NCBI RefSeq assembly: GCF_000148385.1 | Contig: NC_014537.1 | Coordinates: 630,001-662,000 of the forward strand | Reading direction: 5' to 3' | Length of the DNA stretch: 32,000 nt | DNA from: Vulcanisaeta distributa DSM 14429 | GTDB lineage: Archaea; Thermoproteota; Thermoprotei; Thermoproteales; Thermocladiaceae | Shown: piece after piece, positions 3,160 to 25,266 of the stretch | Numbering within the stretch: position 1 is the stretch's first letter | How the letters are laid out: each line of letters begins with the position of its first letter | Program-made: the position numbers and the translations under genes | The notes under the pieces: generated by a model | The model's input: only the letters and a program-made list of their open reading frames with translations | Database searches by the model: none | Told to the model about the DNA's origin: nothing

Positions 3160-6000
3160 TTATTCGTTCCAGAATGGTTTTGTTTTTTGGTATTGTCGTT
3201 CTGCCTCTAGTATTTGTTGGTAGAGTTCCTGCTCTGTCTTTGCCTTTGGTAGGACTTTCCTGATTGCTGTTGTTGGTCCTACCCCGTGCGCTGCTAGGGC
3301 TATTATGGCTTTTTTGCCGTATTGTAGGACCGCCAGGGCTGTTTGTGTTAGTTCCTGCCACTTCTCCTGCTCTTCCCTCGTTAGTCTTTGGTTTCTCCTC
3401 GCCTTCCTGACTATTTCATAGGTCCTTGCTGGGTCTTCCCCGTACTTCAACACGGCTATCTGCCTCATTCCGCACCTTGGGCATTTGACCTGCTCGGGCA
3501 CGTACTTGACCTTCATTGTTACGTGCCACCCGCAGTTTAGGCATAGTAGTGTTACCTCCCTTTCCTCGATTCTTTTCTTTAGTAGTTGTAGTATTGTGGT
3601 TGTTGGTATTCCCTGGACTGCAGCGTCAATTTTGGCGGCTTGGTTTATGATGTGTTGGGCTATTGGTGTGTACTGTTCCACCTTAATAATCCTCACCGCT
3701 GTTTTGCCCTCCCTAATGCTGTTTATGAGTTGTCTGAGTGGTGTTGGGTTTATTTTCTCGGTGAGTATTTCCCTAATGACTTCCCTGTCCACTACCGTGT
3801 CCCTGAGCGCCGCTGCGAGTCTCTCGATGTTTACGTCGACGGACTCCCTGGGCAATACCCCGAACCTCCTGGCCACGTGTATGAACCTGTACTTGTACAG
3901 CCTCGTGCTTCTCACGGCCTCCCTTAACTCCCCCTCTACGTAGTCTGGGCTTTGGTTTAGGGCTTCGGTTATTGCCTGGGGTGGTATGCTTATTGGTGTT
4001 GTTATGAGTGCCCTGTATGGGTCCGTCACGTAGGTCACGGCAACCCTATACCTCTGCCCAATGTATCTGGCTAGGTATAGGGCCAATGCCTGGTTTCCCT
4101 TGGTTCCTAGGCATGCGTGGATCACGAAGTCCCTACCCCTCCATTCAATGGTTACCGTGTCCGGGAAACCCATGACCCCCGTGCTGACTTGCTGTCTCAA
4201 TTCCTCAATGAGTGGCGTTGGGGCGCCTCCCGCTGGGTACTTGGTCAGTACGGGCGTTGGGTCCTCGCCGTTCGCCACAGCCTTCATCAACTCCTCCCTT
4301 AGCCTGCATACTTCCTGCGCCACTTCCGTTGGTACTGGTATTTCCTCGCCGATCCAGGTGGGCACTGCGTTTAGGACCTGGTTCAGTGGTTCTAGTACGA
4401 CCTCGCTCTTCCCTCGGTCGATACCCACTATCCTCCAGGGCCTGCCCGCCAGTATTATCTGTGTCCCAGGCTCCACGGTTTCCACGAATTCCTCGTCGAG
4501 CTCGCCGATTGCCCTATTCGTTATCATGTCCCTAGCCCTGTAGTGTTTTTGGTCTGGTATCATGGATATGTTCTCGAAGTAGTACCTGTGGAGTCCTCTC
4601 CTTGGTGTTATTGTTCCGTCCTCGTTAACCCTAATGAGTCTGTTGCCCTCCATGAACCTCAGGACCTCCATGAGCTCATCACGCGTCAACCCTCTGTATG
4701 GGTGTGCCCTCCTGACGGTGTCTAGGACGTCGCCCACCGTCAATGCCCTGCCCTCCACCTTGGCCTCAATCACCATGCCAGCGACCTGGTGGTGGAGTAC
4801 GTCGAGCGCCTTTTCGTGGTACTCAACTTCCCGCTCTAGTTCGTTGTTTAGGGCCCTCCTGGCTATTACTAATGATTCTAAGTAGTCGTCTGTGTCCCTG
4901 GTTATTACGTGGCCGATAGCCCTCCTGCCAAGCCTATGCCCGCTCCTGCCGACCCTCTGGATTAGCTTCGTGACCTGCCTAGGGCTTGAGTATTGGATTA
5001 CGGCGTCTACGTGCCCAATGTCTATGCCCAGCTCTAGGCTTGACGTGGTCACCACAGCCCTGACCCTACCACCCCTCAGACCCTCCTCAAGCCCCTCCCT
5101 CTCCTCCCTGTCCAGCGAGCCATGGTAAACACCCACGGCGTTGCTACCGAGAACCCTACCTAGCCTATGCCCCAGTAATTCTGCCTCGTCCCTAGTGTTT
5201 GTGAAGACCAGGGTAGCCCTATGACCACTTACTATCTCGGCTATCCTCCTGACCCTCGCCGCTACCTCGGGCATTGTGCTTAACTCCTCAGCCAGGCCCA
5301 CGTCCTCCTCAGATGCCTCTGGGTACTCGACACTTATCTCCATCTCCCTACTGACGTCCACACTCACCACCTCAACCCACCTACCCACGCCGGCTAGGAA
5401 TTGACCCGCCAGCTCCGTGTTTCCGATGGTTGCCGAGAGCCCGATCCTCTGGTACTCACCGGCTATGTTCACGAGCCTCTCCAGGGCTATGGATAGTTGG
5501 GCGCCCCTCTCGTCATTCATCAACTCATGGAGCTCATCGACCACAACCCACCTAACATTCCTGAGAGCCCTCCTCATACTCCTCATCACGAGTATTACCT
5601 GCAGGGTCTCCGGCGTGGTTATGAGTATGGTGGGTGGCTCCCTAACCTGCCTCCTACGCTCGCTCTCTGGGGTGTCGCCGTGCCTAACCGCCGTGGTTAT
5701 GCCAAGCCTACTGGCTATTTCCCTGAGCCTAATGTTCACGTCCCTATTTAGGGCCCTGGCTGGCGTTATGTATATCGCAGCGACGCCGCCCGTCAAGCCC
5801 TCGCTCAGTATTTTGCTCATTATTGGGAACATGGCTGCCTCGGTCTTGCCGCTGCCCGTGGGTGCGGTGATTAGGACGTTGACGCCACTGAGCACCCTGG
5901 GTATTGCCCTCTCCTGGACCGGCGTTGGCTCTAGGTAGCCGAACCCCTCAATTACATCCACAAGCCTTGGGTGTAGGTGCTCCCTCCAGAAATTGCTCAT
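3160..6000 (-). CDS. lhr: Lhr-type (large helicase-related) ATP-dependent DEAD/DEAH-box helicase with C-terminal zinc ribbon
   Basis: Superfamily-2 helicase motifs are present in order: Q-motif PTPVQ, motif I APTGSGKT, motif II DELH, motif III SAT, motif V TSSLELGIDIG and motif VI QRVGRSGHR. They are followed by a long Lhr-like C-terminal extension and a CxxC...CxxC pair (CLNCG...CPRCG). The ORF is open to a TTG at 6066. The first ATG (6000, MSNFWREHL...) matches typical Lhr N-termini better. Confidence 0.88.
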   Translation of the reverse strand: MSNFWREHLHPRLVDVIEGFGYLEPTPVQERAIPRVLSGVNVLITAPTGSGKTEAAMFPIMSKILSEGLTGGVAAIYITPARALNRDVNIRLREIASRLGITTAVRHGDTPESERRRQVREPPTILITTPETLQVILVMRSMRRALRNVRWVVVDELHELMNDERGAQLSIALERLVNIAGEYQRIGLSATIGNTELAGQFLAGVGRWVEVVSVDVSREMEISVEYPEASEEDVGLAEELSTMPEVAARVRRIAEIVSGHRATLVFTNTRDEAELLGHRLGRVLGSNAVGVYHGSLDREEREGLEEGLRGGRVRAVVTTSSLELGIDIGHVDAVIQYSSPRQVTKLIQRVGRSGHRLGRRAIGHVITRDTDDYLESLVIARRALNNELEREVEYHEKALDVLHHQVAGMVIEAKVEGRALTVGDVLDTVRRAHPYRGLTRDELMEVLRFMEGNRLIRVNEDGTITPRRGLHRYYFENISMIPDQKHYRARDMITNRAIGELDEEFVETVEPGTQIILAGRPWRIVGIDRGKSEVVLEPLNQVLNAVPTWIGEEIPVPTEVAQEVCRLREELMKAVANGEDPTPVLTKYPAGGAPTPLIEELRQQVSTGVMGFPDTVTIEWRGRDFVIHACLGTKGNQALALYLARYIGQRYRVAVTYVTDPYRALITTPISIPPQAITEALNQSPDYVEGELREAVRSTRLYKYRFIHVARRFGVLPRESVDVNIERLAAALRDTVVDREVIREILTEKINPTPLRQLINSIREGKTAVRIIKVEQYTPIAQHIINQAAKIDAAVQGIPTTTILQLLKKRIEEREVTLLCLNCGWHVTMKVKYVPEQVKCPRCGMRQIAVLKYGEDPARTYEIVRKARRNQRLTREEQEKWQELTQTALAVLQYGKKAIIALAAHGVGPTTAIRKVLPKAKTEQELYQQILEAERQYQKTKPFWNE

Positions 6001-6125
6001 TAACGCTTCAGCAAGGGGGTTGGGTTCCCCGGGCTTTATGAGTCTGTCTACCCGCTTCACAGGCAATGCGTTGGTTGGGGCTTATTGGCTGTGTTTAGTG
6101 GGTATTTCAGTGTTCGAGTTTGGCA

Positions 6126-6165: not shown

Positions 6166-6954
6166 ATGCTGATAGTTGTTACGAGTGGGTCGAAGGGTGG
6201 GACGGGGAAGAGTACGGTTGCCCTTGGCCTATCGGCGATTCTTTCGCTTAGGGGTTTTGGTCATGAGTTGTTTGATTATTCCTGTAGCCTTGGTGTGTGT
6301 ACTGGCGTTTATTACTACCTTAGTGACTTTGTTGATGGCATTAATAGGTTGTCCAAACTGGTTAGGGTTAGGCAGAGGTTGCCGCCCCAGGGTTATGGGG
6401 GGTTGGCGATTGTTGATTTGCCGCCCATGAGCCTTGCCCAGCCCGAGTTTGTTGATTTGTTGGGTAGGGCTGACGTGCTCGTTGTGGTTAGTTCCTACGA
6501 GCCTGACTCCGTGGTCTCCGTGGAGAGGGTTCTCGAGGCCTACCCAGGCAGTAGGGTTGTTAGGGTTTGTAATAGGATGCCCACGGAGGGTTGCAAGCAC
6601 TACCTCAAGGTCACGCCTGAGTCCCCGTTCTTCGTAATTGGGGAGCCCACCAACTTCAGGACGTTCAGTGAGTTGGTTGGTGAGCTTGGGTTCCCTGGCG
6701 AGGGTAGGTTTGAGAGGGTTGGTAGGCAGTTCGTGGTTAATGGAGTTAGGGCTAAGCTCGTGGCCCGTTGGGACCCATACGCCATAGTCGGCGTTGAGGT
6801 TTCGCAGAAGTGGTACTACGCCCTCATGCCCTTCACAAGGCCAATGGAGGACTTGGTGTCCATGGCCCACCAAATGCTCGGCCCAACATACCTATTCAAG
6901 CTGGGCCTCGCGGACAACGCAATAACCAGGTTGTTCAGAGCCATTAAGCACTGA
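6166..6954 (+). CDS. ParA/MinD-family P-loop ATPase (paralogue 1) with ~100-aa C-terminal extension
   Basis: The N-terminus MLIVVTSGSKGGTGKSTVALGL carries the deviant Walker A KGGxGK[ST] with the signature lysine. A Walker B-like LAIVDLPP is present. The C-terminal ~100 aa has no motif I recognise. Confidence 0.8.
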   Translation: MLIVVTSGSKGGTGKSTVALGLSAILSLRGFGHELFDYSCSLGVCTGVYYYLSDFVDGINRLSKLVRVRQRLPPQGYGGLAIVDLPPMSLAQPEFVDLLGRADVLVVVSSYEPDSVVSVERVLEAYPGSRVVRVCNRMPTEGCKHYLKVTPESPFFVIGEPTNFRTFSELVGELGFPGEGRFERVGRQFVVNGVRAKLVARWDPYAIVGVEVSQKWYYALMPFTRPMEDLVSMAHQMLGPTYLFKLGLADNAITRLFRAIKH

Positions 6955-7028
6955 GTTGCACCAGGTTTGGCGCAACGCAGTTTCTACGATGCACAATCCT
7001 AATTAGGCCTTGGGCCATTGATTAACGC

Positions 7029-7388
7029 ATGGCGGTGATACCGAGCTCCGTTAATCCGTACGCCGCGGCTGAATCGGCAATCCAGGGCGTTGTGAGTAGT
7101 ACCGTTGATTTCATGGCCTTCGTGGCCGCAGTACTCATATTAATAACCATAGCGGGCCTAAGCCTCATTGGCTTCCTGGCCCTCGTTCAGTCACTGATTG
7201 GCTACTCACTCATTGAGTGGTCGAGCATTAGGCGCATTATTGGTGCCCTAGTCGCCATGGGCGTGGTCTTCGTCCTACTAATGGGCATATTACCCACCGT
7301 ACTGAACTCTGTGGGTTTGACGGCGATAGCCACAGCCCTTAGCAATTTCATGGCTATGGTGATGAGCCACCTATCATCGCTCATCTAG
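7029..7388 (+). CDS. Small hydrophobic membrane protein (119 aa), unknown function
   Basis: It has a ~25-aa polar N-terminus, then a long hydrophobic helix (FMAFVAAVLILITIAGLSLIGFLALV), a short basic loop (SSIRRI) and a second long hydrophobic stretch. It is co-directional with ParA-like 1 and 75 nt downstream of it. Confidence 0.6.
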   Translation: MAVIPSSVNPYAAAESAIQGVVSSTVDFMAFVAAVLILITIAGLSLIGFLALVQSLIGYSLIEWSSIRRIIGALVAMGVVFVLLMGILPTVLNSVGLTAIATALSNFMAMVMSHLSSLI

Positions 7389-7392
7389 GTCA

Positions 7393-8028
7393 TTACCCGA
7401 GGACTACCTTCATTAAATTCCTGACGTAATTCCTAATCCTCTCCGCAACCTCCAGCTGATTACTGGCGCCCTCCACGTACGGTATCACCACGGTCATGCC
7501 CTCCACCCTTAGGTTCTCCCTGACCATGTTCATGGCGTAGACCATGTGCTTCGTGCCAACCCTCGGTATGGTCCTCCTTATCAACTCCTCCCTCTCCCTG
7601 GTCAGCGGTATTAGTAGCTTGTCCGCAGCCTCTATCGCGCCCATCGTCAGTCCCAGGTTCACGGCACTCATGGTGTCTATCACGAGGTCATCCACACCGT
7701 ACTTACTAACCAGGGTCTTCTCCAACGCCCTAAGCATCCTTTGCACCTCACCTGGTGCTATCTCACTCAATTGCCTCAGCTCCAGGTACTCCCTATGCCT
7801 TATTGGTATGACCACGTTCCCATCCCTCACATACATCATGTACCTGCCACCACGCACGCTATCTATTATGTCCACCCTCGGGTTAAGGCCCAGGAGTAGG
7901 GATAGGGAGCGGTTGTCCGGGCTTAGGTCCATGTACGCCACGTTCTTCGTACTCATTAGTAGGGCCAGCGTTATTGTTGTTTTCCCCACCCCACCAACAT
8001 TGCCGCTTGTGACTGTTATTATCGTCAT
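7393..8028 (-). CDS. ParA/MinD-family ATPase (paralogue 2), atypical Walker A lacking the signature lysine
   Basis: MTIITVTSGNVGGVGKTTITLAL has a P-loop GGVGKT, but the position of the KGG signature lysine reads N-V. Also present are YMDLSPD (the A' Asp) and a Walker B LVIDTMS. The start overlaps the upstream gene's stop by ATGA. Confidence 0.75.
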   Translation of the reverse strand: MTIITVTSGNVGGVGKTTITLALLMSTKNVAYMDLSPDNRSLSLLLGLNPRVDIIDSVRGGRYMMYVRDGNVVIPIRHREYLELRQLSEIAPGEVQRMLRALEKTLVSKYGVDDLVIDTMSAVNLGLTMGAIEAADKLLIPLTREREELIRRTIPRVGTKHMVYAMNMVRENLRVEGMTVVIPYVEGASNQLEVAERIRNYVRNLMKVVLG

Positions 8029-8375
8029 AACCTCCTCCTTAACTCCTCGAGTTTGTTTAGTAAGTTTTCGATCTCGCCCAGGGTTTTCACGATCTCGCTC
8101 AACGTGTTTATGTAGTTCTCTATCGTGGGTTTCATCTGCGTGAGTTTGTCTAGGTCGTTCTTGATACTCATTACCTCCTCAATCCTCCTACTCAGCTCAT
8201 CTATGTAGCTCCTTAGGTCCGTTAGGTTTTGTTGATGGGTCGGTGGTTGGGTATTCACTGCCTGGATTGTGTTTGTGGGTAGTCCGAACTCGTCCTTACC
8301 CTCATCCTCTATCACAAGCTCCTCCTCAATCTCCTCATTACCCGTTAATTTCCTCCTTTTACCCAGCCCGAACAT
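8025..8375 (-). CDS. Small coiled-coil protein (116 aa), acidic N-terminus, unknown function
   Basis: The C-terminal 60 aa has a heptad-like pattern (LRSYIDELSRRIEEVMSIKNDLDKLTQMKPTIENYINTLSEIVKTLGEIENLLNKLEELRRRL). It has a 4-nt ATGA overlap with ParA-like 2. A TATA-like AAACTAATTAAT lies ~25 nt upstream. Confidence 0.6.
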   Translation of the reverse strand: MFGLGKRRKLTGNEEIEEELVIEDEGKDEFGLPTNTIQAVNTQPPTHQQNLTDLRSYIDELSRRIEEVMSIKNDLDKLTQMKPTIENYINTLSEIVKTLGEIENLLNKLEELRRRL

Positions 8376-8451
8376 GATTACTTAACCGAGGCCCTCATTA
8401 ATTAGTTTTACCCCCAAGCAACTTATTAAGGGGGTTTGTTTATGGCTTTTT

Positions 8452-9963
8452 ATGGGCTTGTTTCACAGTCGTTCTGTGGGTGGGGTTGATGGTGAGGTTG
8501 TGTTTAGTCGTAGGGTCTCGTTTCGCGGCTTCCCAAGTACCGTGACCATCTACAGCACTGTCTGGGGTAGTGGCTGCTTTGTTGATGTGGGTGATTCCGT
8601 ACTCCCCGGCATTGACTCCTTTGACCTTGAGTCCTTCGTTGTGAGGTACATGCCTAAGGTTAGGGATGCCGTGATTAGGGGTGTTTCGAGGGGTTTGGGC
8701 TTTGAGGATGCCGTGGTTAACGCCCTTAGGGTTGAAGTCAGTAATTACCTGAGGAGTGCCGGCGTTGATGCCTCTGGCGATGATCTTGATAAGTGGGCAT
8801 CACTCCTGTTTAGGGGGTTGTATAACTACGGTGCCCTGGAGCCCGTGATGGCCGTAGGCGATGAGGTTGGCCTCACCGACATTTACGTAACCCCCAACGC
8901 CAGGGTTCACTTTAAGTTGAGTAGTCTTGGTGATTGCCAGTCGAGTATTGTGCCTAGCACCAGGGAGGTTGAGCTCTTGGTGAGTGTCATTGGCGATAGG
9001 GTTGGGGTCTACCCAACCTATTATAACCCATCCATCGAGGCTTACGATAGGGCCCATAGGCCAATGCTTAGGGTGAGTGTTGATTCATTCGACGTTACGG
9101 ATAGGACCAGGGTGAGTATTAGGGTCTTCCCCACCAGGGCTTGGAAACTAACTGACATGGTTAGGCTGGGCTCCATTGACGCTAGGTTGGCCGCCTACCT
9201 ATGGCTGGCGCTCGAGGTTGGTGTCCCTGTCCTGGTGATTGGGCCCGCGGGCTCTGGGAAGACGAGCATGTCGGCGGCCCTGATGTCCGCGTTGCCACCT
9301 AGCACGGTGATTGCCAAGGTTGAGGATATCGACGAGGTCCTGCTGCCCCAGGAGTTGGTTAGTGATTATGCTGGTGGTGTCATTCCGCTGCTTAGTCGTG
9401 AGGGTCATGGGGCGGGTGTTAGGCCCATACCACTCTTCCAGAGGCTTGTTCATGCGCTTAGGGTTGGTGCTGATTACATATTTGTTAATGAGGTTAGGGG
9501 TCCGGAGGACACGAGGGCGTGGCTCCACGCCATAATGAGTGGGCAGGTGGGTGGTGCAACCACGATGCATGCTGGTGGTGTTGAGGAGGCCATTGTTAGG
9601 CTTAGGGAGTATGGTGTGCCCATTGACTTGGTTAGGTTATTGGTCGTTCTCATGGGTAGGTTCGAGGTTGGTGGTAGGGTTGTTAGGAGGGTTGTGGGTG
9701 TGTGGGTTGTGGATGGTGGTAAGCCCCTGGTTGCCTGGGATGGGGCTTTGCATGAGGATGTCCTGGTTAAGTTCCTGGGTGGGCGTGTTGGTGAGGACTT
9801 CGTGATTAGGGAGGTGGGTGATAGGGAGGCGTTCCTTAGGCATTACTCGGGCTTCGACATTGATGAGACTGAGTGGGTTAGGTTGATAGCCCTGTTCCAC
9901 AGGGCTAGGGACCTGGTCATGCCGAGGGAGGTCAAGAGCGACGTTGTTTTTGATGAGTCCTAA
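8452..9963 (+). CDS. Type II/IV secretion-family ATPase (FlaI/PilB/TadA/VirB11-like, archaeal pilus-assembly type)
   Basis: Four family motifs are present: Walker A VIGPAGSGKTS, Asp box AKVEDIDEV, Walker B IFVNEVRGPED and His box GGATTMHAGG. The N-terminal ~250 aa has the usual G-x-LEP...DIYV pattern of archaeal FlaI-like proteins. The TATA-like ACTTATTAAG (8421-8430) is 22-31 nt upstream of the ATG. Confidence 0.85.
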   Translation: MGLFHSRSVGGVDGEVVFSRRVSFRGFPSTVTIYSTVWGSGCFVDVGDSVLPGIDSFDLESFVVRYMPKVRDAVIRGVSRGLGFEDAVVNALRVEVSNYLRSAGVDASGDDLDKWASLLFRGLYNYGALEPVMAVGDEVGLTDIYVTPNARVHFKLSSLGDCQSSIVPSTREVELLVSVIGDRVGVYPTYYNPSIEAYDRAHRPMLRVSVDSFDVTDRTRVSIRVFPTRAWKLTDMVRLGSIDARLAAYLWLALEVGVPVLVIGPAGSGKTSMSAALMSALPPSTVIAKVEDIDEVLLPQELVSDYAGGVIPLLSREGHGAGVRPIPLFQRLVHALRVGADYIFVNEVRGPEDTRAWLHAIMSGQVGGATTMHAGGVEEAIVRLREYGVPIDLVRLLVVLMGRFEVGGRVVRRVVGVWVVDGGKPLVAWDGALHEDVLVKFLGGRVGEDFVIREVGDREAFLRHYSGFDIDETEWVRLIALFHRARDLVMPREVKSDVVFDES

Positions 9964-10258
9964 CCCTAACCAGTAACTGCCTCGCCAACTCATTAATGTC
10001 GAGTTGATTCGGGTAATTACTAACCAGGACCTCCCTACCAATCCTCAGCGCCCTCCTAACCTCATCATCAACCGCGCCCAAACCCCTCAAAGCCTGCTCC
10101 AGTAGCCTCAACCCATTGCTCACGTAAACCTCCACCGCGCCCCTACTCGGCCTGACACCCCCAACCCCAAGCCTCGGCCTATTACTAATCCTCCTCATGA
10201 GCCTCATGATCTCCTCATCCTCATACTCATTAACGACCTTCCTACGCAGGAACCTCAT
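9932..10258 (-). CDS. Small basic protein (108 aa), possible DNA-binding partner of ParA-like 3
   Basis: The ATG at 10258 overlaps the TGA of the upstream ParA gene (ATGA), which suggests translational coupling. The protein is Arg-rich (MRFLRRKVV..., ...RVRTHQKQRRS). Its 3' end overlaps the convergent ATPase gene by 32 nt. The ORF track starts it at a TTG at 10270. Confidence 0.5.
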   Translation of the reverse strand: MRFLRRKVVNEYEDEEIMRLMRRISNRPRLGVGGVRPSRGAVEVYVSNGLRLLEQALRGLGAVDDEVRRALRIGREVLVSNYPNQLDINELARQLLVRVRTHQKQRRS

Positions 10259-11034
10259 GGGCTCACCCAAACCCTCTCCGCATTCAACCTCTCCAGCAAC
10301 GCCGCCAACTCATCAATCGCCCTCCTGAACTGACCCAGCCCCGGGTCCTTGACCAGGTAGGGTATTGAGCCCAGTCGCCACGCAGCCTCAATCGCCGGGT
10401 TCCTGAGTATCTTCACCACGTTCTTAACACCAATGTCTAGGTTACCCCTTATACTCGATAACTTATTCAACACCACAACCCCCTCCCTACCTGGGACTAC
10501 CGCCGACGCGTACTCAAGCATGCTACCGAGCCACCCCATGCCGCCTGGCTCGTCCGTGGCCACCAGCGTTATCACGTCGGCACTACCCACCAGCGAGGTT
10601 ATGAGCCCTGGGTTCAGTGCTGGTGATAGGGCCGGTGTGTCTATTAGTATGAAGTTGGGCTTAACCCTGTAATTGCCTATCCCCTTAATTAGTGATGAGA
10701 CCCTCGAGCTCAGGACCGCAGTGCTCGGTAATGCACTGTATGGGTTTGTGATGGGTGATGCGCCAGGTGGTATGACCTTTATATTCCCCACAACCCCATC
10801 CTCAATGAATGCCGTAGAGACCTTAACGGTCTTCGTAACCCCCATAATGTACGTCAAAGCCCCATTAACACTACCCGGGTTGTTCACGCCTAAGACCTTG
10901 GATGCGGTGGCGTTTGGGTCCAGGTCAATGAGCCAGGTCCTGTACCCCCTCATCGCCAGTGCCGTGGCTAGGCTCGTGATTATCAATGTCTTACCAACAC
11001 CACCCTTCTGGCTTAGGAACAATACAGTCAACAC
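10255..11034 (-). CDS. ParA/MinD-family ATPase (paralogue 3)
   Basis: MLTVLFLSQKGGVGKTLIITSLATALAMRG carries a canonical deviant Walker A. Also present are LIDLDPNATAS (A' motif) and a Walker B ILIDTPA. Confidence 0.85.
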   Translation of the reverse strand: MLTVLFLSQKGGVGKTLIITSLATALAMRGYRTWLIDLDPNATASKVLGVNNPGSVNGALTYIMGVTKTVKVSTAFIEDGVVGNIKVIPPGASPITNPYSALPSTAVLSSRVSSLIKGIGNYRVKPNFILIDTPALSPALNPGLITSLVGSADVITLVATDEPGGMGWLGSMLEYASAVVPGREGVVVLNKLSSIRGNLDIGVKNVVKILRNPAIEAAWRLGSIPYLVKDPGLGQFRRAIDELAALLERLNAERVWVSP

Positions 11035-11073
11035 AGGTCTTAACTACGCATGGCATTATTAAGGCTTTACCCA

Positions 11074-12195
11074 TTAGGCCATTGTCAGGGCTATGTACGT
11101 GACCACCAGCGGTACGGTGGCGTACATACCCGTGGTTACGGAGTCAAGCACATAACCACTCATGAAGCCCCCGATTATGACCGTGGGAAGCATAAACTGG
11201 AGCATGGCAACACCCCCAGGTACCTGGGCCGCTATTAACCTCGTTATTACGAGAATAACCTCCATCAGGGCTAGGGACACGATGATTGAGGCGTACCCAA
11301 TCCTCCTGGCTTCCATTACGGAATTCACCACGTGGGTTAGTGATGTTACGGCCACGTTAATCACGTCCGGCCTCCCCATGCCCGTGACCGCGACCACCCT
11401 GGCATACTCACTAATGAAGCCCTCAAGCCAATTCCTGGACCGGGCCTGATCAAGCCTTAGGGTGACCGCCGCCCTCATGACCCTATTAACCGCGGTGTGC
11501 CTCAACTCATTAATCGCCCTAACCCTCCCAACATACCAGTTGAGGCTTAGGCCTAGGAAGGCTGTGGAGAAGACTAACCAGGTGAGTGCTATTGACCTGG
11601 TGATTACGTAGATAGGCACAGACAACGCCAGCGCAATCCCCATGTACCTAGTCAATTCATTATCAATAGGGACAAGGCCCGGGTCAAGGTTCCAACCCAG
11701 CAATGCCGTTATTGGGGCGGCCGAGGCGTAGGTCATCACTAGGTATGTGGTTGGGTTCATGTTTAGGGCCCTACTCACGAGGACTATCGTCATGGGCACC
11801 ATGGCCAGCGTAATCACGGTGAGGGTGTCAAGTAGTATTACCAAGTCCCTGTAATCACCCCTCAACCTGCCCAGGTAATCATCGAGCTCCCTGAGTATGT
11901 AAAGAATTGCCGTGCCGGGTTCAATACCCAGTCTCTCGGCGTTGACCATAGCCTCGAGCATACTCCCGAGGCCTCCTACGTACTTCGTGATCGGCTCATT
12001 CATTGAAATCACGGCCCTAGCCATTAGCAATCGCCTAACTAGTGGGCGGTTAATGCTTAGCCTTTGGGCCTCGTTTATGAGCGTGTCCAGCACCCTACTC
12101 ACTGGCTGCGCCAGGAATAGTGGTGTTGCGAGCATCATGAGCAGTGCCTCCTCGAGCCTAGCCCTGAGCCAGGGCTTTATTGGGCCTGGACCCAT
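11074..12195 (-). CDS. Polytopic membrane protein, TadC/FlaJ/PilC (T2SS-F)-like pilus platform protein
   Basis: The layout is two repeats of a helical cytoplasmic segment followed by hydrophobic helices, as in GspF/TadC/FlaJ. It lies in a locus with the secretion ATPase and a pilin. The ORF is open to a TTG at 12213. The ATG at 12195 sits 25 nt from the shared TATA centre. The family call rests on topology and context only. Confidence 0.6.
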   Translation of the reverse strand: MGPGPIKPWLRARLEEALLMMLATPLFLAQPVSRVLDTLINEAQRLSINRPLVRRLLMARAVISMNEPITKYVGGLGSMLEAMVNAERLGIEPGTAILYILRELDDYLGRLRGDYRDLVILLDTLTVITLAMVPMTIVLVSRALNMNPTTYLVMTYASAAPITALLGWNLDPGLVPIDNELTRYMGIALALSVPIYVITRSIALTWLVFSTAFLGLSLNWYVGRVRAINELRHTAVNRVMRAAVTLRLDQARSRNWLEGFISEYARVVAVTGMGRPDVINVAVTSLTHVVNSVMEARRIGYASIIVSLALMEVILVITRLIAAQVPGGVAMLQFMLPTVIIGGFMSGYVLDSVTTGMYATVPLVVTYIALTMA

Positions 12196-12240
12196 GGGTT
12201 TATGTATGGGCAATACTTAAAAGGTGTATCCCCATGGGTT
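12191..12240. promoter_or_regulatory. Shared divergent promoter: central TATA-like TACTTAAAAGG flanked by two exact CCCATGGGTT copies 40 bp apart
   Basis: CCCATGGGTT occurs at 12191-12200 and 12231-12240, and CCCATGGG is itself a palindrome. The TATA-like box at 12214-12224 lies ~25 nt from both divergent ATGs (12195 minus, 12245 plus). Confidence 0.5.
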
Positions 12241-12244
12241 AATT

Positions 12245-12670
12245 ATGCGTAGTAGGGGTGAGTTATCGCCCTTGGTCTCCGTCATAATTGCGGCGGTACT
12301 CATAGTCGTTGGTGTGGCGCTAGTGATGATTTTCTACCACGGCGCAAAGGCAATGGGGCAGCACGCCCTTAGCGCCCCTAACGTTGAGGTCTCGGGCAGC
12401 ATGTCGGCGTCCACGGGCGTGGTGACGATAAACATCTATAACGCCGGCACAACGCAACTAACGATTAGTGGTGTTAAGGTGTATGGTCCTAGTGGCTCGA
12501 TACTCGATTGTTCTTGGAGCGGTGTTGGCGCCGTGGTGGCTGCTGGCGGTAGTTACGGGGTTGTTGGTCAGTGCACTGGTGTTGAGGCTGGCGTCACATA
12601 CACGGTGGTTATTACTTTGAATGGCACAGGTGGCTCATTGGCTGAGTCCCTTACCATAACCGCCTCGTGA
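12245..12670 (+). CDS. Archaeal type IV pilin-like protein (class III signal peptide)
   Basis: The N-terminus MRSRGELSPLVSVIIAAVLIVVGVALVMIF has a short basic leader, an R-G cleavage-type motif and a ~22-aa hydrophobic helix, as in archaeal DUF1628-type pilins. The rest is Gly/Ser/Thr/Val-rich and beta-strand-like. The ORF track starts at a GTG at 12224; the ATG at 12245 fits a leaderless start. Confidence 0.7.
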   Translation: MRSRGELSPLVSVIIAAVLIVVGVALVMIFYHGAKAMGQHALSAPNVEVSGSMSASTGVVTINIYNAGTTQLTISGVKVYGPSGSILDCSWSGVGAVVAAGGSYGVVGQCTGVEAGVTYTVVITLNGTGGSLAESLTITAS

Positions 12671-14009: not shown

Positions 14010-14483
14010 TTAATACGTTATTGTTATTTGGCCTGCTACCCCGTCGTATATTAGGAGGATGTTGCGTAGTATGTCGTGGCCTATCAACGCCCTGTATTGC
14101 TGTGCTGATAGGTCTACGGCTGCGACGGTCACGTTGTCAAGCACTATCCTAGCCCTCACGTCCGGTACGTTTGAGAATAGTATGAGCCTAACTAGGTACA
14201 GTGGGACTGTTACTTGACCGCTCGCCGTGGCTGAGTTAACCGTGCCATACGGTGGATAACCAAGTTGGTTCAGTACATTCTTGTCAATTGACGTGATTGA
14301 GGCGCCGGTATCAATCAACGCAATTACATTCCTAACGTTGTTTAGGGTTATACCCCTGCTTTGGGCGAAGCTCTGAACAACACCTGCTGGTTTTACGTCA
14401 ATCATTATTACGGGCCCATTTATCCTAAGGACATCGGCGGGCAAGGCGTTCGGTGATGCGTAGTTAATCCTAACTATGGGCAT
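14010..14483 (-). CDS. Retropepsin-like (clan AA) aspartic protease
   Basis: The catalytic motif ALIDTGAS is present, with the downstream LIGHDIL motif at the expected spacing. The ~150-aa single-lobe size implies a homodimeric retropepsin-type enzyme. Confidence 0.75.
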   Translation of the reverse strand: MPIVRINYASPNALPADVLRINGPVIMIDVKPAGVVQSFAQSRGITLNNVRNVIALIDTGASITSIDKNVLNQLGYPPYGTVNSATASGQVTVPLYLVRLILFSNVPDVRARIVLDNVTVAAVDLSAQQYRALIGHDILRNILLIYDGVAGQITITY

Positions 14484-22423: not shown

Positions 22424-22858
22424 TTAGGAAATTTCTAGGCCCAGGGACTTTAACACGGCTCTCATAATGTCAACAGCCCTCCTAGCCATGCCCAGGGCAG
22501 CTTCGGCGTCACCTCGGCTGTATATTTCCCAGGGAGTTAATCCACGTTCAGGCTCTCCATACGTGCTCCTACCATGCTCGGGCGCCAACCTCCTCACTAT
22601 CACCGCTAATTCACTTACCAATTCCGTTAAATTCCTCGGTAGGTTAGCCATTACATCCTCCAACTCGCCAGACGGGTCATGACTCCAACTCGGTATCCTA
22701 TAAATGGCTATGACGGCCTTAGCCGCGTTTTCAGCAGACAACTGCGCAGCGGCGACGGTGCCCCTCCAATCACCCCGACTGAATGCCTCATTGGCCTCCC
22801 TGAGGTAGTTAATGGCTAGCCTATACCTGTAATTGACCTCATCGATTGGGTCATACAT
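22424..22858 (-). CDS. HEPN domain protein (toxin-type partner of MNT)
   Basis: It is all-helical, has the Rx4H motif (RRLAPEH followed by STYG), and overlaps the upstream nucleotidyltransferase gene by 8 nt. Confidence 0.8.
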   Translation of the reverse strand: MYDPIDEVNYRYRLAINYLREANEAFSRGDWRGTVAAAQLSAENAAKAVIAIYRIPSWSHDPSGELEDVMANLPRNLTELVSELAVIVRRLAPEHGRSTYGEPERGLTPWEIYSRGDAEAALGMARRAVDIMRAVLKSLGLEIS

Positions 22859-23315
22859 TAACCCTCACCGACTTAATCATCGGCCTTCCATCAGCCCTCA
22901 TCCACCCATACTTCCCATCCCTAGTCCTATACCTGACCAGGCCCTCATTCTCTATGAATTTAATCACGGAATCCTTAAAACGCCTCAGGTCACCATACCT
23001 ATCACAGATTATTACCCCATCCCACGCCATGTTGATTGCCAACGCCGTCAATTTACCGCTGAGCTCGCTCCTCCTCATATCTACCAGTGTTATATCGCGC
23101 TTAACGAATCGCCTAAGCACCTCATAGGCCCTAGCCCTAACATCTAACCCGCTCAGCGTGTTGAATAGTACCATTACGTCAACATCACTATCCTCACGTG
23201 CCTCACCCCTCGCCCAGCTACCAAAGAGCATGAGCCCAAGGAACTCATCGCCGAACTCACCCTCTAAGTCCCTGCATGCCATCCTCAGTAAGTTGATAAG
23301 CTCATTAAGGTTCAC
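22851..23315 (-). CDS. Minimal nucleotidyltransferase (MNT, Pol-beta superfamily)
   Basis: LMLFGSWARGEAREDSDVDVMVLF matches the GSxxRGx(n)SDxDxxV signature. Confidence 0.85.
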   Translation of the reverse strand: MNLNELINLLRMACRDLEGEFGDEFLGLMLFGSWARGEAREDSDVDVMVLFNTLSGLDVRARAYEVLRRFVKRDITLVDMRRSELSGKLTALAINMAWDGVIICDRYGDLRRFKDSVIKFIENEGLVRYRTRDGKYGWMRADGRPMIKSVRVNV

Positions 23316-25148: not shown

Positions 25149-25266
25149 TGGGGCCGCCGGGATTTGAACCCGGGATCACTCGGGCTCGCGTCTGCTACGT
25201 TGATCCCGAGCCGAGCCTCAGGCGTGGTTGAACCCACGTATCCTAGCCAGGCTAGACTACGGCCCC
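25149..25266 (-). tRNA. tRNA-Pro (anticodon CGG) with two introns (25/26, 23 nt, at 25217-25239; 37/38, 20 nt, at 25185-25204)
   Basis: The inferred mature sequence is GGGGCCG-UA-GUCU-AGCCUGGCUA-GGAU-G-CUCGG-CUCGGGC-CCGAG-UGAUC-CCGGG-UUCAAAU-CCCGG-CGGCCCC-A (75 nt). It has U8, A14, G18G19, U33, G37 and a T-loop UUCAAAU. Both introns lie in bulge-helix-bulge motifs. ACCA is encoded (25146-25149). A TATA-like CTTAAATT lies ~25 nt upstream. Confidence 0.85.

Follow-up and report, generated by a model that had tools for sequence, protein, structure and literature searches.

ParA/MinD ATPases are a general prokaryotic means of placing large structures. Here, we describe a compact block of nine genes from the chromosome of the archaeon Vulcanisaeta distributa DSM 14429 (positions 6166-12670 of the window, the 32,000-nucleotide stretch of DNA that was analyzed), in which genes for a filament-assembly motor and a pilin are interleaved with three genes for proteins of this ATPase class. 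The closest described counterparts are the pili of Thermoproteales subclade 4G (Pyrobaculum/Thermoproteus; arCOG05605-05612), which were catalogued in a survey of 168 archaeal genomes that included V. distributa, with seven clade-4 ATPases (Makarova et al. 2016, PMC4858521), and which a 2026 preprint also describes. In these loci, the genes for the ATPase, TadC, and pilin are accompanied by one for a dedicated FleN/MinD ATPase (arCOG05608) and by several for small α-helical cytoplasmic proteins. In Pyrobaculum calidifontis, the 4G run from GenInfo identifier (GI) 126458957 to 126458949 comprises, in this order, an alpha/beta cytoplasmic protein, an α-helical protein, a small α-helical protein, FleN, the ATPase, an unlisted gene, a 112-amino-acid (aa) α-helical protein, a 398-aa TadC, and a 148-aa pilin. 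Outside this group, the literature describes a locus-encoded ParA/MinD-class protein that localizes the bacterial Tad/Flp machine, and a family of regulators, FlhG/FleN/MinD, that governs the number and placement of filament machines.

We propose, at a probability of roughly 0.6, that this chromosomal, genus-specific block directs the assembly of a pilus-like type IV filament and supplies its own ParA/MinD-class accessory factors. Its genes are as follows.

6166..6954, plus strand: ParA-like 1, 262 aa, ADN50046; divergent ParA/MinD-class P-loop protein
7029..7388, plus strand: 119-aa membrane protein, highly hydrophobic, with two to three transmembrane (TM) helices; 74 bp downstream of ParA-like 1
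7393..8028, minus strand: ParA-like 2, 211 aa, ADN50048; MinD/FleN-like
8025..8375, minus strand: 116-aa acidic coiled-coil protein, ATGA-coupled to ParA-like 2; coiled coil C-terminal
8452..9963, plus strand: secretion/assembly ATPase of the FlaI/GspE/PilB/VirB11 superfamily, 503 aa, ADN50050
9932..10258, minus strand: 108-aa basic protein, isoelectric point (pI) about 11, ATGA-coupled to ParA-like 3
10255..11034, minus strand: ParA-like 3, 259 or 255 aa, ADN50052; typical small ParA/Soj-type ATPase
11074..12213, minus strand: polytopic membrane protein, 379 aa (probably 373), in platform position; orphan family
12224..12670, plus strand: predicted type IV pilin, 141 aa from ATG 12245, ADN50054; class III signal SRG/ELSP

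The block resembles the 4G loci in several respects. Both come from the same order of archaea, and in both, a diverged secretion ATPase lies beside a FleN/MinD-like ATPase (arCOG05608 in 4G), with a small α-helical protein encoded just upstream of the latter (arCOG05607 in 4G). In 4G, a 112-aa α-helical protein lies between the ATPase and TadC (arCOG05610), TadC is a diverged 7-TM protein of about 398 aa, the PilA-type pilin has 148 aa, and an "alpha/beta cytoplasmic protein" stands at the edge (arCOG05605). Judged from the published description, the sizes and relative positions are strikingly alike. However, one MinD-like ATPase is recognized in 4G, as opposed to three in the Vulcanisaeta block, and the Vulcanisaeta 379-aa protein is without detectable relatives outside its genus. 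In addition, 4G loci run on into many minor pilins and large immunoglobulin-rich adhesin/S-layer-like proteins (arCOG05613-05619), whereas in Vulcanisaeta, housekeeping genes follow the pilin and no genes of the arCOG05613-05619 type are present. An earlier note on this DNA, drawn from the sequence without database searches, knew of no described system with three distinct ParA paralogs, each with a small partner, in one compact pilus locus, which is too strong: a pilus locus with a MinD-like ATPase and small helical proteins is already known from the Thermoproteales 4G catalog (PMC4858521). What is new is the presence in one locus of three distinct ParA/MinD genes with putative dedicated partners, of which we found no mention in the 2016 survey or the 2026 preprint, and the orphan protein in the platform position.

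Closely packed at a coding fraction of 96%, with 40-99 bp in the intergenic regions, the nine genes fall into five transcription units whose strands alternate; an Lhr-type helicase lies on one side and housekeeping genes on the other. All nine open reading frames are present at the coordinates and on the strands listed above and correspond to GenBank proteins ADN50046-ADN50054, in agreement with the earlier count of nine genes in 6.5 kb. Both ATGA couplings described there are likewise present: at 8025-8028, the stop codon of the 116-aa gene overlaps the start of ParA-like 2, and at 10255-10258, the stop codon of ParA-like 3 overlaps the start of the 108-aa gene. For three genes, GenBank and the gene callers favor shorter starts, giving products of 108 aa (ATG 10258), 373 aa (ATG 12195), and 141 aa (ATG 12245).

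By its sequence, the product of 8452-9963 is firmly assigned as a FlaI/GspE-family secretion ATPase. It matches Pfam T2SSE, the family expected for this gene, at an expect value (E) of 2.7e-18 (66 bits against a cut-off of 24.9), and NCBIfam FlaI (4.9e-29), TadA-like (6.6e-23), and BasE (6e-17) profiles; among structures in the PDB, it matches Archaeoglobus GspE (2OAP, 4e-24), FlaI (2e-18), CpaF (4e-9), and VirB11 (1e-7). The four motifs that had been noted for a FlaI/PilB/VirB11-family ATPase are all in place and all align to 2OAP: Walker A (GPAGSGKTS), Asp box (KVEDIDE), Walker B (DYIFVNEVRG), and His box (TTMHAG).

The product of 12224-12670 is firmly predicted to be a class-III-signal archaeal type IV pilin, kin to the P. 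calidifontis pilin of PDB entry 8FK7, as the earlier reading of it as a divergent class-III-signal-peptide pilin had it. Its N-terminus, SRG/ELSPLVSVIIAAVLIVVG, is kept among orthologs and conforms to the class III signals of archaea; next come a hydrophobic helix and, toward the C-terminus, a domain rich in β-strands that contains two conserved cysteines. UniRef names the protein "Archaeal Type IV pilin N-terminal domain"; NCBIfam gave a weak BasC match (0.026), and a Pfam scan gave none. The pilin aligns over its full length to 8FK7 (E 0.0023), and both cysteines align to the pair that forms an intramolecular disulfide in that structure (PMC10334743). The P. calidifontis flagellar-like type IV pilus thus provides the closest solved pilin, cysteine pair included, but the E value is only 2e-3 and its locus has a KaiC/FlaH-like ATPase, not a ParA/MinD-like one (PMC10334743).

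No prepilin peptidase was found among the scanned window genes or in the precomputed Pfam matches of the flanking genes. In archaeal type IV pilus loci, the class III signal peptidase is usually encoded elsewhere. Similarly, the nine proteins (Pfam, NCBIfam) and the precomputed Pfam matches of the flanking genes contain no KaiC/FlaH or FlaF/G family and no other archaellum part that was sought (FlaH/ArlH, the FlaF/G stator, FlaX or FlaCDE, archaellin), whereas two true archaellum loci (L010 and L011) do show archaellum families. These family scans agree with the earlier view that a block lacking FlaH/KaiC-like, FlaF/G, and prepilin peptidase genes is not an archaellum operon.

On sequence evidence, the three ParA-like proteins are assigned to the ParA/MinD P-loop class and are mutually distant; by family profile, ParA-like 3 lies clearly over the curated cut-off, ParA-like 2 at it, and ParA-like 1 under it. 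An alignment with MinD places a common order of motifs in all three (P-loop, switch I, hhhhD, aD-hhhh), and in each, the P-loop starts within the first 17 residues. Similarity among them is only remote (pairwise E of about 1e-4 to 1e-2), and hence the three genes are not recent tandem duplicates. The Walker A strings quoted at the outset (KGGTGKS, NVGGVGKT, and KGGVGKT) are present, and family matches together with the motif alignment support three distinct ParA/MinD-class genes, one of which, ParA-like 2, is without the signature lysine.

ParA-like 3 is the canonical member. It contains SQKGGVGKT (signature lysine present), LIDLDPN, and ILIDTP, and matches Pfam AAA_31 (4e-14; 53.4 against 27 bits) and CbiA (2e-13), NCBIfam ParA_partition (2e-12), and PHROG ParA-like (1.7e-21) profiles, as well as Soj, ParF, and ArsA in the PDB at about 1e-6. 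Its gene lies on the same strand as the membrane-protein gene, 40 bp downstream. ParA-like 2 contains Walker A (GNVGGVGKTT), switch I (DLSPDNRS), and Walker B (LVIDT), all conserved in orthologs, but the signature lysine is replaced by valine in every ortholog, the rest of the fold signature being retained. Its matches are weaker, namely Pfam CbiA at 1.5e-5, exactly at the cut-off (25.4 against 25.4 bits), and NCBIfam MinD at 2e-7, with remote matches to PDB MinD (1e-3, residues 3-145), PDB FleN (1e-2), and PHROG ParA-like (1e-4). Because the signature lysine is missing, ParA-like 2 is probably a slow or non-hydrolyzing switch; judged from its sequence, it would be a divergent, probably hydrolysis-impaired member of the class.

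ParA-like 1 has Walker A (SKGGTGKST) with the signature lysine, a Walker B-like AIVDLPP, and a divergent C-terminal half. Its Pfam match to CbiA (2.3e-4) covers only the N-terminal part and lies under the cut-off (21.6 against 25.4 bits); it matches PDB FleN at 4e-3 over residues 3-123, from Walker A to Walker B, and ParA-like 3 by BLASTP at 5e-4. UniRef names it "CobQ/CobB/MinD/ParA nucleotide binding domain", and its ratio of nonsynonymous to synonymous substitution rates (dN/dS) is 0.15. Four of its cysteines, C40, C45, C135, and C143 (CxxxxC and CxxxxxxxC), are invariant in all orthologs, whereas ParA-like 2 and 3 have none; these cysteines could form a metal or Fe-S site, as in relatives of the Mrp/NBP35 type, or disulfides. 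C-terminal membrane anchors of the MinD type were considered for ParA-like 1 and 2, whose tails have high hydrophobic moments, and MAFFT aligned ITRLFRAIKH of ParA-like 1 to the tail of Escherichia coli MinD; the hydrophobic moment is a crude measure, and we relied on neither observation.

The gene for the 379-aa membrane protein lies in the platform position. By hydropathy, the protein consists of a K/R-rich cytoplasmic helical domain (residues 1-122), about four TM helices, a second such domain (residues 228-302), and three further TM helices. Its gene heads the operon with ParA-like 3 and lies opposite the pilin gene across 49 bp, and its homologs, down to 50% identity, are confined to Vulcanisaeta. 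The earlier label "TadC/FlaJ-like", with its expectation of a T2SS-F match for 11074-12213, did not hold: Pfam and NCBIfam were blank in the protein and eight orthologs, for T2SSF/TadC/FlaJ and for any other family, a PDB profile search was blank, an exhaustive HMMER profile search through 1.84 billion representatives found nothing beyond the protein's own family, and hhalign against five T2SSF/FlaJ proteins of related loci, singly and as a profile, gave probabilities below 1%, from shallow alignments with an effective number of sequences of 1.8, which could miss a remote relationship. An internal duplication, with the N-terminal half compared to the C-terminal half, scored a probability of 0.2%. 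An AlphaFold2 model from eight sequences reached a predicted local distance difference test (pLDDT) score of 40 and was unusable. By eye, both cytoplasmic domains contain an "x-G-x-x-P ... helix ... R ... TM" repeat, at which the best, non-significant hhalign segment also lies, which we take as a hint only. Topology and gene position suggest that the 379-aa protein most likely is the membrane platform; it would be either an extremely diverged TadC/FlaJ protein or a replacement for one.

Each of the ParA-like genes has a small neighbor. The 119-aa protein encoded behind ParA-like 1 is 73-88% conserved in the orthologous loci and has no match in Pfam, NCBIfam, PHROGs, or the PDB. The 116-aa partner of ParA-like 2, with only weak, coiled-coil-type matches in Pfam/NCBIfam, begins with a basic tip (MFGLGKRRK) that turns acidic (...EEIEEE), and MF.LGKKK is conserved in two of the related loci (L005 and L009). 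The 108-aa partner of ParA-like 3, whose homologs occur only in Vulcanisaeta, has a disordered, basic/acidic stretch of about 38 N-terminal residues (MRFLRRK...EDEEI), followed at residues 39-106 by a three-helix bundle predicted by AlphaFold2 at a pLDDT of about 90, for which no significant PDB match was found by sequence or by fold (Foldseek against the PDB gave nothing below E 0.9). A ribbon-helix-helix fold was considered for this protein and rejected, because the confident AlphaFold2 model is an all-helical bundle with no β-strand; the blank Foldseek search of the PDB agrees. The 116-aa and 108-aa proteins are otherwise unrelated, and their N-termini follow one design, kept across orthologs, of six to nine basic residues and then an acidic run containing EEI. 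Basic N-terminal peptides of ParB-, ParG-, and MinE-type partners usually contact and activate ParA/MinD ATPases. By analogy, we infer that this shared design is the usual layout of partners that activate or anchor a ParA/MinD ATPase.

The order of the nine genes is identical, and their orientation alike, in six further Vulcanisaeta-like assemblies: V. distributa JCM 11216 (L002) and JCM 11217 (L003 and L004), a Vulcanisaeta metagenome-assembled genome (L005), two hot-spring contigs from JGI (L009 and L013), and strain JCM 16161, for which order was judged by consecutive locus tags. In the most distant lineage, protein identity across the nine genes is 49-74%. All nine genes are under purifying selection, with dN/dS of 0.11-0.38 for every gene whose dS could be estimated (dS was saturated for two). 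The Lhr helicase flank is conserved (L005, L009, L013), whereas the other flank differs between lineages (L005, L009). The nine-gene arrangement is not a chance adjacency. Synteny of the ParA genes with the pilus core, which the earlier note had asked for in related genomes, holds across Vulcanisaeta; outside the genus, a genome scan found no counterpart block, and protein searches gave only Vulcanisaeta and a few distant metagenomic ATPases. The nearest ATPase relatives from outside the genus (29-36% identity) belong to plain ATPase and T2SSF loci or to archaellum operons, without ParA genes. In the drafts of JCM 11216 and JCM 11217 (L002 7665-14269; L003 3-3878), many frameshifts split the matches over several frames; these are most likely sequencing errors rather than pseudogenization.

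In the proposed machine, the FlaI/GspE-family hexameric ATPase would drive extraction of the class-III-signal pilin from the membrane and its polymerization, after processing by a prepilin peptidase that is presumed to be encoded elsewhere. The 7-TM protein, with its two cytoplasmic helical domains, would serve as the platform and be co-transcribed with ParA-like 3. The three ParA/MinD-class proteins would act as dedicated accessory factors, not as DNA-segregation proteins, and would set where and how many machines are assembled; the canonical ParA-like 3 and ParA-like 2 would each work with the small protein to which they are translationally coupled, and ParA-like 1 could be tethered by the small 119-aa membrane protein.

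Control of position or number is the most likely role of the ParA-like proteins by analogy with TadZ/CpaE, FlhG/FleN, MinD4, and arCOG05608; these precedents, the operon that ParA-like 3 shares with the membrane protein, and the strict co-conservation of the block are the reasons for this reading. Like the block, bacterial Tad/Flp loci combine a CpaF/TadA-type ATPase (CpaF match 4e-9) and a small pilin with a gene of the ParA/MinD class; they also encode a platform, whose counterpart in the block would be the 379-aa protein. However, there is one such protein per Tad locus, as opposed to three here, and the Tad platforms TadB/C are recognizable T2SSF members. In TadZ/CpaE, a receiver-like domain lies N-terminal to the ParA-like ATPase domain, whereas the three Vulcanisaeta proteins begin directly with the P-loop and have no preceding domain. 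Among the FlhG/FleN and MinD regulators (for example, Haloferax MinD4), FleN and MinD are the best solved relatives of ParA-like 1 and 2; these regulators are usually single, though, the archaeal ones are mostly encoded apart from the filament operon, and no FlhF or MinE is recognizable in the block. V. distributa is a non-motile rod whose pili were reported to "rise terminally or laterally" (PMC3035369), which fits a positioning role.

Several points weigh against this reading. The positioning function is argued from analogy, ParA-like 3 with its very basic small partner resembles a DNA-partition cassette of type Ib, and the family call of ParA-like 1 is sub-threshold in Pfam. No similarity of the 379-aa protein to a T2SSF/TadC/FlaJ protein could be detected, and its AlphaFold2 model cannot be used. 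Moreover, this locus need not be the source of the observed pili, as V. distributa encodes seven ATPases of the kind. In a more specific form, which we put forward as tentative and consider rather unlikely, three non-redundant switches (one canonical, one lysine-less, and one cysteine-rich and possibly membrane-tethered), each with its partner, would form a self-contained spatial control module that jointly fixes the placement and number of the filament machines, and the platform would be a new family without detectable kinship to TadC/FlaJ.

Three features lie between the genes of the block or at its border.

3160-6066, minus strand: Lhr-type helicase, 968 aa, with a C-terminal Cys-rich motif, aLhr1-like; divergent from ParA-like 1 over 99 bp
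8376..8451, no strand: putative divergent control region, 76 bp, between the 116-aa/ParA-like 2 unit and the ATPase gene
12196..12244, no strand: putative divergent region, 49 bp, between the membrane-protein operon and the pilin gene

Both regions are readings of the DNA itself. The first contains putative A+T-rich TATA-like boxes about 25 nucleotides (nt) from either start codon; the second contains one near-palindromic A+T-rich TATA-like element, CTTAAAAG, about 25 nt from the start codons of both the membrane-protein operon and the pilin gene. This suggests a single TATA region that would serve both directions and give leaderless transcripts.

The alternative that survives best, although we consider it unlikely, is an Ups-like or bindosome-like (subclade 4I) machine, for example for DNA-damage-induced aggregation and DNA exchange or for the assembly of a surface complex, in which the ParA-like proteins would couple to DNA handling. 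Like the proposed machine, the Sulfolobales Ups system (upsXEFAB) is a small ATPase-platform-pilin system, with possible phylogenetic proximity of the ATPase and an Lhr-type helicase nearby. The phylogenetic argument turns on which published sequence corresponds to the ATPase of the block, for which an identity of 86% was observed, against about 0.16 substitutions per site in the published tree pairs. In the Makarova tree, the candidate GI 307595032 has as its sister a Sulfolobales clade in which UpsE appears to lie, and Table S5 of that survey ties this GI to a Vulcanisaeta component annotated "R motif followed by SP", matching SRGELSP. Yet two V. distributa/V. moutnovskia pairs fit 86% identity, 307595032 near 4I and 307594784/325969018 in clade 4G, and the second fits the divergence equally well, so that the assignment is ambiguous. 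The weak BasC and BasE matches would also favor an Ups- or bindosome-like machine, as would the Lhr-type helicase, which divergently adjoins the block in every orthologous locus; Sulfolobus acidocaldarius likewise has an Lhr-type helicase, saci_1500, within a few genes of its ups operon (saci_1493-1496b) and requires it after UV. However, the window helicase belongs to aLhr1, with a Cys motif at its C-terminus, whereas saci_1500 belongs to aLhr2, and Ups loci are without ParA/MinD genes and have UpsF described as their assembly platform.

It is improbable that the ParA modules, chiefly ParA-like 3 with the 108-aa protein, serve DNA segregation as SegAB-like or plasmid type Ib cassettes that sit in, or were co-opted next to, a pilus locus. 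ParA-like 3 is indeed a canonical small ParA by its ParA_partition (2e-12) and PHROG ParA-like partition (1.7e-21) matches, and its ATGA-coupled partner is small, with a pI of about 11 and basic tails, as in ParF/ParG-type pairs. On the other hand, a search for direct and inverted repeats found no centromere-like repeat arrays at the locus, where intergenic regions of 40-99 bp leave no room for them, and the partner is all-helical and finds no counterpart among SegB, ParG, or ParB structures, whether compared by sequence or by fold. ParA-like 3 is also co-oriented 40 bp behind the membrane-protein gene in a conserved arrangement, and its similarity to plasmid ParAs is only 26-33%. The earlier suggestion of SegAB-like segregation modules fused to a filament is unsupported on the same two counts, the missing repeat arrays and a 108-aa partner whose three-helix bundle matches no solved structure.

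A conjugation-type apparatus (a Ted-like type IV secretion system) is quite improbable. Here, the ATPase would be VirB11-like, the 7-TM protein VirB6/TedA-like, the 119-aa protein VirB2/TedC-like, and the ParA proteins VirC1-like. In its favor, the Ted loci of Thermoproteales, Vulcanisaeta included, often contain MinD/ParA (VirC1-like) genes and a 7-TM TedA (PMC9905601). The ATPase also matches VirB11 and TrbB, the 379-aa protein has about seven TM helices and no T2SSF signal, and the 119-aa protein is hydrophobic with two to three helices. However, the defining Ted/Ced component, a VirB4/HerA-like ATPase, is not in the window, the ATPase of the block is much closer to GspE, FlaI, and CpaF (1e-24 to 1e-9) than to VirB11 (1e-7), a bona fide class-III-signal type IV pilin is encoded within the block, and the 119-aa protein resembles no solved chain.

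That the ParA and pilus genes are functionally unlinked, through chance adjacency or an integrated mobile element, is very improbable: the alternating strands with five transcription units and a locus GC content of 0.53, above the published genome mean of 0.454, would fit it, but the order is identical across lineages down to about 50% protein identity although the other flank changes, the GC content of the helicase and the rest of the window is likewise raised, no integrase, flanking tRNA, or plasmid/phage match was found (PHROGs gave generic ParA matches only), and the membrane protein lies within the ParA-like 3 operon.

Turning to the surroundings of the block, the window begins within the rRNA operon, with 23S rRNA (1-1426) and 16S rRNA (1480-2991) preceding the Lhr-type helicase, and the downstream housekeeping genes encode pterin-4a dehydratase, cytochrome bd, two PurP paralogs, phosphoenolpyruvate carboxylase, and prephenate dehydratase. 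The GC content is 0.534 for the locus, 0.547 for the helicase, and 0.499 for the rest of the window (3000-32000), all above the published genome mean of 45.4% (PMC3035369), and composition does not jump at either border of the locus. Two sites, 6357-6372 and 9959-9974, form an exact inverted repeat of 16 nt (ACTGGTTAGGGTTAGG and CCTAACCCTAACCAGT); they are 3.6 kb apart and both encode LVRVR, one within ParA-like 1 and the other at the C-terminal end of the 108-aa protein. The repeat is probably a chance result of codon use, though unexpected for 7 kb. At 14010-14483 (minus strand), 1.3 kb past the pilin, lies a gene for a 157-aa retropepsin-like aspartic protease (Asp_protease_2/gag-asp_proteas), which is outside the conserved block and missing from the matching flank in L005 and L009. 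Further downstream, an overlapping gene pair at 22424-23315 (minus strand) encodes a HEPN-domain protein and a minimal nucleotidyltransferase (MNT), a typical HEPN/MNT toxin-antitoxin-like module, and a 118-nt tRNA was detected at 25149-25266 (minus strand) by Rfam (39 bits), presumably with an intron, and was not reported by ARAGORN.

To our knowledge, the placement of pili in archaea is almost unstudied, and we know of no genetic tools for Vulcanisaeta. The reach of the present finding is limited, as the block is confined to one genus. Within that genus, the 379-aa orphan family may be a hidden platform protein. The nine genes cover a motor, a pilin, a platform candidate, and three ParA/MinD proteins along with the small proteins that probably partner them, which makes the block a compact candidate for reconstitution; this could show which partner activates which ATPase and which of them binds the motor.

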